64,000 nucleotides of DNA from Eledone cirrhosa (GCA_964016885.1 OZ024760.1:19220001-19284000), one strand, 5' to 3'. Shown: positions 10,034 to 60,680, counted from the first letter of the stretch. Made by a program: numbers and translations. Notes: generated by a model from the letters alone, not told the origin.

Positions 10034-10226
10034 CACGTTATTCCGGGTTGAATCGGAGGTAACCACAGTAAGTAAGGTGCTCAATACATAGCAGAGTATA
10101 AAAGTTTTAATATAGATGAGATTCTACAAGACTAGAACCGTTTCATTCTTTAGAAATCATCAGGTATTCCTGATGATTTCTAAAGAATGAAACGGTTCTA
10201 GTCCTGTAGAATCTCATCTATATTAT
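10034..10226. mobile_element. Fold-back non-autonomous insert in (TA)n with a 5'-truncated hammerhead core on both arms
   Basis: Arms 10107-10164 and 10169-10226, loop tatt; CTGATGA 10170-10176, stem II ttct/agaa, GAAA 10189-10192; same family as 32560-32735. Confidence 0.8.
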
Positions 10227-10754
10227 ATATATATATATATATATATATATTTAATGAGCGAAATTGCACGCCAGAAAGTAGCTGAAGAGATTGAAATGTT
10301 TGTATCTGTGCATATTTCTGCGAATATTATGTTTTTTTTATACCCAAATACTCAATTTCAATCAAGGCTCCATTATTCCCACTCTAAATCATTTTTTTTC
10401 TTTTTTTGAAAATTCAGAAAAATAAATTGATATTAACGTTATATATTATATATTAAAAAATATTTTTTTAATATATTTTGGAATGATTCCCCCCAAGCAT
10501 TGAATTTATTTTTAGTTTTATTTCATTTTTTTTTTTAAATAAATTTTTGTTTTTTTCTTTTTATAAATTTTATTTATTTATTTATTTTATTTATTTATTT
10601 TTTTTATTTGGTAAATTGTAAATTCTATAAAAAAAAATCGAGTATCGCCTTATTTTTACGTTTCTTATTTTTTAGAGATTTACATGTTTGATGGTGGTGT
10701 GTAATTTAGTTTAAAAACAAACATTTGACGTGTGATAATAAAAAAACACATTGT

Positions 10755-11520
10755 AATTTGTTGTTGTTATTGTAGCTGTTTTTGTTGTTATTGTTCCTGT
10801 TGTTATTGTGGTTATTATTGCTGCTACTGTTGCTGTTATTACTGTTGTTGTTATTACTGTTGTTGTTATTACTGTTGTGGAGGTAGTGGTGGTGGAGGTT
10901 GTGGTTGTCTGTCGTGGTAGTGGTAGTTGTGGAGGTGGTGGTTGTGGAGGTAGTGGTGGTGGAGGTTGTGGTTGTCTGTCGTGGTAGTGGTAGTTGTGGA
11001 GGTGGTGGTTGTGGTGGTGGAGGTTGTGGTTGTCTGTCGTGGTAGTTGTGGTGGTAGTTGTGGTGGTTGCGGTGGTAGTGGTGGTGGTTGTGGAGGTAGT
11101 GGTGGTGGAGGTTGTGGTTATCTGTCGTGTTAGTGGTAATTGTGGTGGTGGTAGTTGTGGAGATAGTGGTGGTGGTGGTAGTTGTGGAGGTGGTTGTGGT
11201 GGTAGTTGTTGAGGTTGTGGTTGTCTGTCGTGTTAGTGGTTGTGGAGGTAGTGGTGGTAGTTGTGGAGGTAGTGGTGGTGGTTGTGGAGGTAGTGGTGGT
11301 GGTTGTGGAGGTAGTGGTGGAGGTAGTGGTGGTGGTTGTGGAGGTAGTGGTGGTGGTTGTGGAGGTAGTGGTGGTGGTTGTGGAGGTAGTGGTGGTGGTT
11401 GTGGAGGTAGTGCTGGTGGTGGTTGTGGAGGTAGTGCTGGTGGTGGTTGTGGAGGTAGTGCTGGTGGTGGTTGTGGAGGTAGTGCTGGTGGTGGTAGTGG
11501 TGGAGGTTGTGGTTGTCTGC
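10755..11520. repeat. (TTG)/(GGT/GTA) triplet compound microsatellite
   Basis: Direct inspection. Confidence 0.9.
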
Positions 11521-11658
11521 TTCTCTTTCTCCCTCTATATCTCTCTCTCTCTCTCCCTATCTCTATCAATCTATCTCTCTCTCTCTCTTTCTCTCTTTCT
11601 CTCTTTGTATCTCTCTCTCTATTGAAAAATGTGTGAAATCGTTGGTACAGTTAGGTAC

Positions 11659-11786
11659 ATTTGAAAAAAGGAAATGAATGAGTTGTAGTTCTAAACAATT
11701 TGATTTAATTTTATAATATTATAATATAAAATTAAATCAAATTGTTTAAAACTACAAGTGAAGTCATTCTTTTCCTTTTTACAAAT
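11659..11786. repeat. Imperfect AT-rich palindrome
   Basis: ttgtagtt.taaacaatttgatttaattttat / ataaaattaaatcaaattgtttaaaactacaa. Confidence 0.75.
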
Positions 11787-11927
11787 ATATATAAACATAT
11801 AAAATATATATATTTACATCTCCTGTGGATTTTATCTGAAAAGAACACGTTGGCAGATGTTATCAAAAAGTCATGTCTACGAAATACGTATAACAAAATA
11901 AATAGCTATGGAGAAATATAACCGTCA

Positions 11928-12030
11928 TAGGTTAACTTTGCTTTTCATCCTTATGGGGTCGATAAAATAAAGTACCAGTAATACAGTGGTTAATTGCTGG
12001 CCTTGTGCCAAAAGTAGAAACAATTATTAT
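11928..12030 (+). mobile_element. tRNA-derived SINE, 3' half
   Basis: ggttaactttgc..ttcatcctta.ggggtcgataaaataaagtaccagta...gccttgtgccaaaagtagaaacaatt. Confidence 0.85.
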
Positions 12031-56917: not shown

Positions 56918-57266
56918 CGGTGAATTGGCAGTATCGGTAGAGGGTTGGACGCCATGCTTTCTAGCATAGTTACGTCCCTTTACAGTCTGAGTTCAAATCC
57001 CGCCGATGTTAACTTTGCCTTTCATCCTTACGGGGGTCGATAAAATAAAGTACCAGTAATGTACTTGGTAATTGCTGGCCTTGTGCCAAAAAGTAAAAAT
57101 AATTATTACATATATATACACATACATATATAATATGTATATGTAATAATTATTTCTACTTTTGGCACAAGGCCGGCAAATCTCCAATACATTACTGGTA
57201 CTAAAATAAAGTACCAGTAATGCACTGGGCAATTGCTGGCCTTGTGCCAATAGTAGAAACAATTAT
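56918..57266 (+). mobile_element. Full-length SINE (56918-57108) followed by an inverted pair of tail fragments
   Basis: A- and B-boxes present; tail fragments at ~57148-57202 (minus) and ~57203-57266 (plus). Confidence 0.88.
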
Positions 57267-58812
57267 ATATATTTCCCCGTTCTCCTCTTTCACTCACACG
57301 CTCAGTGTCTGGAAGAAAGTGGCTGGGCTCTGACAGAAATAATACCCTCACTCCAACAAGTCCATCAGGAGTTACGGCTGTATACAAACATCATGAAGGT
57401 GGTCTTTACGGCTACTCTCGGGTCTCGAATAATGCCCCACCCTCTTATTAATGTTTTCATATTTTTCCACCACATCCCCTCTTATTGCAAACCCCTCGCT
57501 TATTTAATTTAGCTAAACTATCTCCAGCGAAATGTTATTTTAAGTAGTAGCATTCCTGCGAGAAGTAATTTTCAAAATGTATCATCAGTAGCTTGTCTCC
57601 CGTAGTCTAACAGACCCTGATACAAAAACAACAAAAAAGACTATGACACAGCGCTTCCCTCCCAGACAAAAACATTAAATTAACAATTCCCACTTTATTC
57701 TATTTATAATTAATTATAATTAATTCAAATTTTAAGTTTGTCTTCCCTGCAAGCTTTGAAAATAATAAACTATTATTACAATGGTTTATATTCTTTTCCC
57801 CTCGCTACGGGTGTAATTTTAATGAATTGAAGTAAATTTCTAGTCCTTACTACACTTAGTGTTTTAATACATATATGACTGTTTGCTTTTCTTGCAAAGG
57901 AGGTCCCCCGCATTCTTTATTGAAAATAAACAGACTGGCTTAAATAGACAAACTGTCAAAATCTGAAATATAAACATTGAACACAACATCAATTCTAGAA
58001 TTACACACGCATTACACACACATACATATATAGACACACTCACACAGACATATATAAACACACTCACACAAACTCACACTTACACATTCAAACACACAGT
58101 CACAGACACACACACAGACACATACACACACAGACACATACACACACGTGCATTTCACACACTCGCACAGAGATATGTATAATATATATCATATATGTAT
58201 TGTGTGTGTATATATATATATATATATATATATATATAAACTGGAATTAATGCAAACTGTTTTCTTTTAATTTGGTGGGTGGCAGTATGGATAGAGCGTC
58301 AGACACCATGCGTTGTGGTATATAGTTACATCCCTTTACGTTATGAGGTCAACACATATATATGTATATGTATATATATATATATATAACCAAACTATTA
58401 GCAGAAAAGGATGGACAGAGAAACGAACTCCCTTCTCTGAATGAACATGTGTGAAAATTAATTTTTCTTCCCCTTTTTATTTTTATTATTATTATTATTT
58501 GTACAAATATGCAGCTTAACAATATTCTGCATATATGCAATTGACAATGCATACAATACTGAAACCGGTATTGCAAATAGATTAATGTTTTGATATTTCA
58601 CTGAAAAAATCTCTTCAGCATTTTCTACTGAAAAGAAAAAACTCTTTCCTTTCTACAATTTGTTTATATATATATATATATATATATATATATATATATA
58701 TGACTCCAGTTCCCCAGTGAATTAACAACCCAACAAGGAACTGGGCATATCAGAGTATTGACAATATCATACACCTAAACAACATATGTACTTGTCTATA
58801 CCATACTAATTC

Positions 58813-58867
58813 ACTGCCTGAAGAGGTCACAGCCAAAGATGGCTGTCACTGAAATATATATAGCAGT
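58813..58867 (+). ncRNA. Type I hammerhead in a solo insert (58702-58912) within (TA)n
   Basis: Stem I acugc/gcagu; CUGAAGA 58818-58824; stem II ggu-acagcca/uggcugu-acu; GAAA 58851-58854; (AU)n palindrome; AUA site. Confidence 0.85.
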
Positions 58868-60067
58868 AATAAACGAAGCTAAATTTTAATCATTTGACTT
58901 TTATTTAACTTTATATATATATATATAATGTAATGTGTATATATATGTAAGTATGGTTTGAAACAACGAGCGAGTTTGAAATTAGAAATAGAAGCTTCTG
59001 CCGTATTTTTTTTAATAAAATTTTTTTAGCCTCGTAGTGATGTTTAGAACCCTCTAAGGAATCGAAAAAGATGAGTATTAATGTACAAGTGATATGTATA
59101 TATATATATATATATGCGTGTGTATATATATATGTATATATATATATATATATATACAGTATTTTCCGTAGTGTTGTAATATAATATATTCCGATGAAAT
59201 GACAGTTGATAATAACATTGAAATATTGAATGTCTGCATAACTAATACTTTGTAGATAGCAGCTGTTTTCAGGTTATGTAACTGTTATAGAAACACGTGT
59301 CAATAAATTCCTTTTAACTAAACTGTATCCATTAAAATCCTTCTCTCTATATATATATATGCGTGTGTGTGTGTGTACATATATATATGTGTGTGTGTAT
59401 GTATGTGTGTACATATATATATATATATATATATATATATATATATATAATGTTCCTTTTAATTAGTTATATAATCAATATATAAAACATATGTTTCCTA
59501 GATTTCGCTGACCAGCATTCAAACTATTCAAGACTGCGTAATAACTGTAGGGTGTAAACACACTTATTTAATAATATATCATTATATAGCTATGATATAT
59601 ATATATACACATATATACATATATATATTTATATGAATCTATGAGTGTATGTATGCATATATATATATATATATAAGGTCTGCTTATATTAGGGATTGTG
59701 TTTCGGGGAAGACCAAAAATCTGTTTTATGTTCATTTTCTTTATCCGCTCTCCTGAACATGAGATTTCCACAATCAAAACTTATTATATATATATATCTA
59801 TAAATAGTGTTGAAAATAATATGAGTACACACGATGTATTTATAATAAGGAGAAAACATAGGGAAAAAAATTACTTAAATTTGATTGTTAATGAGCCGGA
59901 GGAGAGGAAATTAACTTGTAACAGCAACAAACTTTAGGAATACATATACTTTGGTTTTCTCACGGTAACTCTGACTAAAGAATCGTTAGTGTTTGCTATT
60001 TTACTAAGGGGACAGCAGCTGTGTGACAACAACTCCTTTAATTCGAGTCAAGTAATTCTGGTAATAT

Positions 60068-60222
60068 AATAATTGTTTCTACTTTTGGCACGAGGCCAGC
60101 ATTATCTCAGTGTATTACTGGTACTTTATTTTATCGACCCCGGCGGGATTTGAACTCAGATCATAAATGGCCGTAACACTTTGCTGCAAAGCGTGGCGTC
60201 CGACCCTCTACCAATACTGACA
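60068..60222 (-). mobile_element. SINE, internally deleted
   Basis: Homology to the full-length copies. Confidence 0.85.
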
Positions 60223-60537
60223 AATAATAATAAACATGTATAATACACTCTACTCTACTCTGGTATTGAGCACTTTTCCTCATATTTGCAAACCTAATAT
60301 ATATATATATATATATACGTGGGAGAGTAAAAAATCGGAGAATAGACCGTTAAAACATGTTTATTTAAAATATCACCTACGTACGTTTCGCTACTTGGCA
60401 AATAACTATATGTATCACCTATCCCACCTTTTTTTCTCTTTACGTAAATACGTAAATACTATATATTTACGTAAATACGTAAATATATATATATATATAT
60501 ATATATATATAATATAAATAGAGAGAGAGAGAGAGAG

Positions 60538-60680
60538 GAAAAGAGTCAGGACCCCGACGTCTGAGCTAGATTTCGACAGCTAGATCCGAACTCTTTTCCT
60601 ATTACCCACTCTACTACCGTAAGTATCGAGTACGCTGGTGTGTTATGGTCCTCCTGGTTCTTTACCACACTTTCTTTGTT
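60538..60680 (+). mobile_element. Third member of the 12.9-kb fold-back family
   Basis: gaccccgac.ctgagct arm plus cctattacccactctactac... tail running into (TA)n. Confidence 0.8.

Follow-up and report, generated by a model that had tools for sequence, protein, structure and literature searches.

Why does one 11-nucleotide motif, GTATTGAGYAC, stand beside runs of TA repeats in repeat families that otherwise look different? The question is raised by a 64,000-nucleotide stretch of the Eledone cirrhosa genome (GCA_964016885.1 OZ024760.1:19220001-19284000; hereafter the window, with positions counted from its first nucleotide). The initial annotation had listed six copies of this motif, often preceded by ACTCT and always pointing toward the adjacent TA run, and had proposed that they are a cis-recognition or 3′-end signal for a mobilising reverse transcriptase (RT)/endonuclease, analogous to the shared tails of long and short interspersed nuclear elements (LINEs and SINEs). 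Our analyses place the motif in a small bulged hairpin, which is almost certainly a real conserved feature of the ends of Hydra-clade Penelope-like elements (PLEs).

The coordinates of the five exact copies (10077−, 13031+, 18424−, 32592− and 60263+) and of the copy with one mismatch (60623+) were all confirmed. Five exact copies compare with 0.08 expected, and five or more were reached in none of 100 shuffles of the window. The orientation also held for all six listed copies, which lie 23–48 nucleotides (nt) upstream of the adjoining TA run. Specifically, the next downstream run of at least five TA units is found at 43 (10077), 48 (13031), 48 (18424), 33 (32592), 23 (60263) and 47 nt (60623), and the upstream runs are 49–465 nt away. 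The window is animal DNA, rich in repeats, and its SINE-like repeats appear similar to those of octopus. It contains 490 runs of at least five TA/AT units, and the background probability of a TA run within 50 nt downstream is 0.086. With the hairpin masked, the flanks could be aligned within family A (10077, 32592) and within family B (13031, 18424, 60623), whereas across A, B and C (60263) they could not; the exception was one further pair of the 45 compared, A32592/D19216, which scored via a short AT-rich downstream match. The families are thus indeed different and the copies do not all stem from a single one, but the six copies represent only three families, and the evidence counts as three independent families. 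Combined with the background probability, this gives by simple arithmetic a joint chance of about 6e-4. ACTCT precedes the motif in five of the six copies, the sixth (18424) having a mutated arm.

Sequence similarity alone did not extend this set. Matches with one mismatch numbered 7 against 3.5 expected, which is not clearly above chance, and matches with two mismatches showed no excess (19 versus 50.6 expected). A de novo k-mer search of 91 TA-junction flanks (79 clusters), in which the lists for toward and away orientations are mirror images by construction, found an 8-mer core in three clusters, which is unremarkable among 8-mers. The weaker variants that had been proposed near 20961 and 41345 are therefore not supported by sequence alone; the one at 41345 fits the structure described below with a 1-nt bulge, while the one at 20961 was not counted, being recovered by no descriptor and lying 107 nt from a TA run. 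A one-mismatch match at 38792, which was not in the initial list, was not accepted since it is without a 5′ arm.

The upstream ACTCT pairs with the 11-mer, which thereby forms the 3′ strand of a bulged hairpin. In the refined model, RYTC is followed by an upper stem of at least three pairs with a loop of 3–8 nt, a 2-nt bulge (T-N) and GAGY. This model replaced a first one with a 3-nt internal loop, since the first upper pair was found to covary: in the new matches to the first descriptor, which was built structure-first and left the letters GTATT and AC unconstrained, base five changes in step with the base that had been taken for the first of the bulge (T-A, C-G, A-T), although the descriptor did not impose this pair. 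The first descriptor gave 12 matches in the window, 8 of them within 60 nt of a TA run compared to a null mean of 0.56; of these 8, five had served for training and two of the other three had already been spotted by eye. The refined descriptor, which was tuned on the window data, gave 8 matches in six families, compared to a mean of 0.46 matches in total and 0.044 near a TA run in 500 shuffles. All 8 end 25–66 nt ahead of a TA run, consistent with insertion into (TA)n, a feature that is not unique to Hydra. A covariance-model search of the window returned the ten training copies below an E-value of 0.02 and nothing new below 2.5. No Rfam family reached the gathering threshold anywhere in the window, and in E-value scans palindromes and microsatellites drew mainly microRNA-like matches, while hammerhead families gave no more than weak scores, on the palindrome of family A. 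A possible likeness of the 11-mer to a protein-binding loop of a spliceosomal small nuclear RNA was set aside because the motif lies in a stem.

Among ten aligned window copies 92.9% of the cells are paired, and two-sided changes occur in four of the seven pairs. This covariation score was equalled by none of 500 shuffles, and slid controls were 20–50% paired, but the structure had been derived from the same sequences. Across 15 families, the rows of which were chosen as descriptor matches, lower pairs 2–4 (CTC/GAG) and the first bulge T are invariant (15/15), and the upper pairs show three to five pair types each while always being paired. An invariant core combined with an upper stem that is free in sequence but paired suggests a protein that reads a short sequence in a fixed shape. 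These observations also bear on the idea that the motif acts as double-stranded DNA in an internal promoter, of which Penelope terminal repeats offer an example with a downstream element (PMC2377424; here and below, statements on published sources refer to the parts of them that were covered). Since the compensatory changes and the variable loop length point to pairing and not to a linear DNA site, we consider a promoter motif very unlikely.

To obtain out-of-sample copies, a prokaryotic genome collection was scanned for CTCT, a gap, ATHGAGYAC, a gap and six TA units, a pattern defined by sequence alone that contains no pairing constraint. The scan yielded 18 matches at 16 loci, 11 of which are located in nine contigs (seven families) that appear animal-like, as judged from their PLE open reading frames (ORFs) and TA runs. 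These are eight contigs of assembly CBDDTI01 (L001–L003, L005, L008, L010, L012, L013) and NZ_MPRK01000348 (L011). All 11 animal-like matches are Watson-Crick paired at the three positions that the pattern left free (probability about 1e-6 for two positions in seven families). The remaining seven matches, from one orthologous site in Segatella/Prevotella, all fail the basal pair, and a second register there pairs the upper positions. The animal-like contigs contain four further hairpins outside the pattern, which are 34–42 nt from TA runs save for one tandem duplicate at 131 nt. A covariance model built from the window copies only recovered 11 of the 15 contig hairpins at E-values of at most 0.07, and none in the two bacterial loci searched. 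That the hairpin merely reflects functionless shared ancestry or chance might be argued from the small window sample and from a descriptor tuned on that sample; given the out-of-sample pairing, and given that the hairpin is kept between families whose flanks have lost detectable similarity, this explanation is hardly credible. Two side observations were made on the contigs. A tandem pair of hairpins, 96 nt apart, follows a single hammerhead ribozyme in L001 (861-1010, +). Furthermore, all nine contigs are filed as bacterial but hold animal-type retrotransposons and TA microsatellites, so the assemblies appear to include host DNA.

The ORFs of these contigs connect the hairpin to one clade of PLEs. 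As described in PMC8557442, Hydra-clade elements have a CxCX5C linker, a GIY-YIG endonuclease, terminal CxxC and CxH motifs, DKT (a modified DKG) and RWK, and no CCHH motif. In L001, L011, L012 and L013 a CxCX5C linker precedes a C-terminal GIY-YIG domain, with CxxC and CxH near the end; DKT and YRDD are present in the RT piece of L013, and RW[KR]A was matched only in L002, the other contig ORFs being cut before these regions. Of eight Hydra-type ORF ends, four read ORF, hammerhead (degenerate in one case), hairpin and TA run; three stop at a TA run just 5′ of the hairpin, which is present in a copy of the same family; and one is cut by the contig end. None of four non-Hydra PLE-type ORF ends (the Neptune-type element of the window and three candidate ORFs in contigs) carries the hairpin. 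The hairpin elements have hammerheads and, where seen, C-terminal endonucleases, unlike the Naiad clade with its N-terminal endonuclease and no canonical hammerhead, and the hairpin-linked ORFs show neither the CX2-5CxxC linker nor the CCHH endonuclease of the Neptune clade.

Published consensi support this assignment. The exact 11-mer occurs once in the searched supplement of PMC8557442 (583,287 characters), in a coral Hydra-clade consensus, 26 nt from its end and downstream of the hammerhead. Inspection by eye of six Hydra consensi in File S7 of that study revealed the strict hairpin in three (the coral and two sea cucumber families) and a looser form in two; the octopus consensus is without it, and its sequence ends 36 nt past its hammerhead. 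The initial suggestion that autonomous PLEs might end with the motif is thereby borne out in so far as Hydra-clade elements, in both contigs and consensi, carry it near the 3′ junction. The strict hairpin was found in none of 53 Naiad 3′ ends inspected by eye (from 54 consensi, about 140–350 nt each), and two oyster Naiad families have a loosely similar long-loop arrangement there. The words hairpin, stem-loop and bulge were absent from the main text of PMC8557442 as covered, and no description of the hairpin was found in the searched parts of PMC8557442, PMC11167929, PMC13282606, PMC7229834, PMC4209133, PMC3846280, PMC6765202, PMC2377424 and bioRxiv 10.64898/2026.07.22.740005. Topic searches returned no title or abstract start that describes it and an exact-motif search no transposon paper by title, with Repbase/Dfam entries, several supplements and subscription journals lying outside the scope of these searches. 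Accordingly, the carrier elements are already known as Hydra-clade PLE ends, but a bulged hairpin between two termini appears to be undescribed in the sources searched.

How do the short window copies relate to these elements? Four of the six listed copies sit in insertions that read TA run, palindrome, one-sided tail and TA run, and family D, which the initial annotation had missed, adds a fifth palindrome with a tail at one end only (tails of 74–80 nt; Table 1). Such inverted, 5′-truncated copies with a palindromic junction and a one-sided tail have been described for PLEs (PMC8557442, PMC3846280). Upstream of the hairpin a type I hammerhead is complete in families D and E, a truncated core in A and only the 3′ half in B (by eye); none was found there in families C, G and F of the window. 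All hairpin-bearing window copies are truncated 3′ of any ORF, and we infer that they are 5′-truncated 3′ ends of Hydra-clade PLEs inserted in (TA)n. SINEs, with their RNA polymerase III-derived head and a tail that is always copied, are a poor match: the 5′ parts of the window copies are hammerhead-bearing fold-backs and the hairpin is omitted in short-ended copies (no transfer RNA scan was run). Like the PLEs of PMC8557442, the window copies have a (TA)n target, in some families (A, B, D and E) a complete or partial hammerhead near the 3′ end, 5′ truncation, an inverted 5′ copy and a one-sided tail; the published tails are 30–40 bp, compared to 74–80 nt in the four A/B palindromes and family D, and the window copies are without an ORF.

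The motif is not the terminus itself, as a comparison of long- and short-ended copies shows. In six such comparisons from five families, the junction of the short end with the TA run falls at a TA-like patch 0–10 nt before the hairpin, and the long end is reached 25–66 nt beyond it. Since copies of one family end on either side, the hairpin sits between two alternative termini and is missing from short-ended copies. In the palindromic insertions of the window, the inverted arm corresponds to the short end and the direct arm to the long end. For two window hammerheads (58818 and 21169) the TA run lies 49 and 34 nt past the cleavage site, as expected for short ends, and the lack of a hairpin there is therefore uninformative.

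These features could be accommodated by the following mechanism. In the element RNA, downstream of the hammerhead, the hairpin would consist of a 4-bp lower stem with the invariant CUC/GAG, a 2-nt 3′ bulge starting with the invariant U, a 3–5-bp upper stem of free sequence and a variable loop, usually with AC after it. The RT-endonuclease protein of the element would bind this hairpin, read CUC/GAG and the bulged U, and thereby pick its own RNA. After cleavage of (TA)n, the 3′ end of the target would prime reverse transcription either at the TA-like patch 0–10 nt 5′ of the hairpin, giving a short end in which the hairpin is not copied, or 25–66 nt 3′ of it, giving a long end in which it is. 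If both sites were used in one event, and template switching or snap-back occurred where the copy is truncated, the product would be a palindrome with a one-sided tail of 74–80 nt. On the basis of the sequence comparisons, we find it fairly probable that the Hydra protein binds the hairpin, selects the RNA, primes on either side and makes fold-backs when both sites are used. Of the roles proposed initially, cis-recognition is thus also the one that we favour, with a structure and not an 11-mer as the unit. With less confidence, and as a tentative extension, the hairpin may be an ancient protein-binding element of Hydra-clade Penelope RNAs in molluscs, cnidarians and echinoderms, comparable to a telomerase RNA element outside the template, that anchors a dimeric RT and sets two priming registers, which would explain one-sided tails and fold-back ends.

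The alternative termini also bear on three other explanations. The hairpin might act in DNA, in new complementary DNA or an extruded genomic copy, as an endonuclease site that resolves an intermediate or guides insertion beside earlier copies. It consists mostly of Watson-Crick pairs and could form on either strand, the D. virilis Penelope endonuclease is stated to need tail sequence for recognition and cleavage (PMC11167929), and in L011 two different Hydra elements, each with a hairpin, face one shared TA run. We nonetheless find a DNA site improbable, because short-ended copies insert with no hairpin in their DNA, and because the irregular pairs fit the sense strand better (G-T wobbles at several cells, against A-C at two terminal ones). 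Equally doubtful is a role in the 5′ leader of the next tandem unit, whose RNA is cleaved by the hammerhead and uncapped, either in protecting this RNA or in aiding translation of the ORF. The hairpin lies shortly 3′ of the hammerhead in most families (48–71 nt from the GAAAC core in contigs), and one sea cucumber Hydra consensus in PMC8557442 opens with two strict hairpins in the 5′ leader ahead of the ORF. However, such a role leaves unexplained why short termini lie 0–10 nt 5′ of the hairpin in all five families compared and why the distance of long termini is limited; moreover, in family E the hairpin is 167 nt from the ribozyme, and yet the distance to the junction is kept. The third explanation is regulation of the hammerhead by strand exchange between the hairpin and helix III, the strands of which are ACTC-GAGT in four of nine contig families (by eye) and in five Hydra rows of the published hammerhead table (PMC8557442). 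In the other families helix III has different strands but the hairpin core is still CTC/GAG; with no covariation between the two, strand exchange is quite unlikely. The sharing of the ACTC/GAGT strands by helix III of many Hydra hammerheads (L001, L002, L003, L013; PMC8557442 File S2) and the lower stem of the hairpin could reflect duplication, mimicry or a second protein site.

Several points weigh against an RNA hairpin bound by the Hydra protein. The hairpin is weak, with model energies of −0.4 to −4.7 kcal/mol in the window copies, and it is the local minimum-energy fold in only 9 of the 15 families; whole-tail folds of the window copies, except that of 32592, were not more stable than those of shuffles, and with a relaxed loop limit the descriptor matches background DNA too. 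Ten of the 11 animal-like matches come from one assembly, and since the contig loci had been picked by motif plus TA run, these say nothing on the fraction of Hydra elements with the hairpin. Apart from the hairpin, the window families share no nucleotide homology with the Hydra contigs, and they lack an ORF; tblastn of the Hydra ORFs against the window gave a weak match to the Neptune-type element only. The clade of the window families is thus inferred from hairpin, hammerhead style and TA target. A strict hairpin is present in the 3′ untranslated region (UTR) of the clam element Naiad_Mmer (PMC8557442 File S5), a short way past the end of the ORF, with about 460 nt of the consensus remaining; the hairpin is thus not exclusive to Hydra, and this copy may be either an element common to both clades or a fragment captured from Hydra. 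Finally, in the Poseidon system priming takes place at a non-homologous site, unlike the TA-like patches of Hydra-type ends (PMC11167929).

Small RNA structures recognised by the RT of an element are well known from the shared 3′ stem-loops of LINEs and SINEs (L2/eel type), the R2 3′ UTR and telomerase RNA elements outside the template. In LINEs and SINEs the tail forms the terminus and is copied every time, which does not hold for a hairpin that lies between two termini and is omitted in short-ended copies. The analogy that had been drawn with such tails is therefore loose: the copies look like 5′-truncated 3′ ends of several related Penelope-like families, with no sign of SINE-like passengers. 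The closest biochemical parallel is the purified Poseidon PLE PAc (Frangieh et al. 2024, PMC11167929), which cuts both strands of AT-rich DNA, initiates internally at an AC-rich stem-loop, has two internal RT start sites at the limits of the tail, and depends on RNA located 3′ of these sites. PAc belongs to a different clade, the parts of that paper covered report no cross-family conserved structure, and the RNA stretch in its Fig. S1 has no RYTC/GAGY hairpin, the letters being taken from the figure with their order uncertain. In Penelope elements of Adineta vaga (Arkhipova et al. 2013, PMC3846280) palindromes at the inverted junction are read as self-priming, a 31-bp tail is optional and terminal repeats are sufficient in cis, all of which resembles the present copies; the word hairpin is absent from the passages covered. 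Non-LTR (long terminal repeat) retrozymes (PMC7229834; bioRxiv 10.64898/2026.07.22.740005) are likewise short non-coding hammerhead repeats linked to PLEs, but they form tandem arrays with full ribozymes, whereas the hairpin copies are solitary truncated fold-backs, and the two tandem arrays of the window are without the hairpin.

Table 1. Hairpins and insertions in the window, with the Neptune-type control.
Feature	Position	Strand	Remarks
Family A, copy 1, bulged hairpin plus AC	10077..10097	-	43 nt to TA run
Family A, insertion 1	10034..10225	-	Fold-back palindrome 10108-10225 with 5′-truncated hammerhead-like core, then 74-nt tail at one end only
Family A, copy 2, bulged hairpin	32592..32612	-	33 nt to TA run
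Family A, insertion 2	32559..32734	-	Palindrome 32635-32734 and 76-nt tail
Family B, copy 1, bulged hairpin	13016..13041	+	48 nt to TA run
Family B, insertion 1	12883..13089	+	Perfect 64-bp-arm palindrome (12883-13010), 3′ half of hammerhead-like motif (by eye), 79-nt tail
Family B, copy 2, hairpin	18424..18449	-	Two changes in lower stem; 48 nt to TA run
Family B, insertion 2	18376..18485	-	14-bp-arm palindrome (18453-18485) and 77-nt tail
Family B, copy 3, hairpin	60608..60633	+	Bulge T-C; 47 nt to TA run; rearranged inverted arm upstream, about 60537-60577 (by eye)
Family C, hairpin	60252..60273	+	Alternative register from 60247; 23 nt to TA run; upstream part replaced by SINE-like repeat
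Family D, hairpin (missed initially)	19216..19237	-	First upper pair C-G; GC after hairpin
Family D, insertion	19157..19542	-	149-bp-arm palindrome (19237-19542), complete hammerhead per arm (cleavage 19294-, 19485+), 80-nt tail on left arm only
Family E, hairpin (missed initially)	37928..37951	+	First upper pair A-T; 167 nt downstream of complete hammerhead (37694-37761)
Family G, hairpin (missed initially)	36943..36969	-	First upper pair C-G; 64 nt to TA run; no hammerhead found upstream
Probable 1-nt-bulge variant, weak	41345..41366	-	In 75-nt TA-flanked fragment; 28 nt to TA run
Control: degraded Neptune-type PLE ORF, three pieces	904..4300	-	Terminal repeats without hairpin

The only coding PLE of the window, at 904-4300, has 230 homologues and is of the Neptune type, with a CX2-5CxxC linker and a CCHH endonuclease; this linker is common to 99 of 120 homologues, and the Hydra linker occurs in none of the 120. 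It was rejected as the mobiliser on account of its type, and a look-alike of the motif near 4878, 117 nt from the TA run, belongs to another hairpin. The whole element (904-5004) has an inverted terminal repeat and a long in-frame asparagine-rich stretch in the ORF (2347-3969); asparagine-rich inserts are known from rotifer Penelope elements (PMC3846280). A C-rich run followed by GTATAAC adjoins the TA run at 4985-5004 (+), 38460-38478 (+) and 51725-51757 (+), two of these sites being downstream of Neptune-type-style hammerheads (4779, 51534), and this terminal motif may be the Neptune-type counterpart of the hairpin signal. Two tandem arrays are present: 24914-27649, retrozyme-like, with units of about 478 bp that each contain a complete hammerhead (six cores, the first truncated), and 30586-32171, with units of about 590 bp and a degenerate hammerhead-like motif (by eye) but without the bulged hairpin. 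A palindrome related to the first array, with 312-bp arms and a different terminal hairpin in a 67-nt tail, lies at 48503-49194. The fold-back at 60714-60893 (57-bp arms, 66-nt tail) has a similarly shaped hairpin near 60835 with a different lower-stem sequence, and is a possible divergent member. Very long low-complexity arrays at 43125-45390 (TTC-based), 52440-53480 (GT-based) and 54000-54750 (CAA-based) yield spurious long ORFs.

The hairpin may bear on how Penelope-like RTs, the closest relatives of telomerase, select their RNA and on what causes one-sided tails. An in vitro system is called for in PMC8557442, and for another clade binding has been narrowed only to a region of 172 nt (PMC11167929). 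A structure of 20–27 nt with an invariant core, kept across phyla and flanked by both termini, offers a precise mutational target. It also allows short TA-flanked fragments to be assigned to a clade and their true ends to be fixed. If the comparison with telomerase RNA holds, any hairpin-bearing RNA could be written into (TA)n sites, with the hairpin itself left uncopied.

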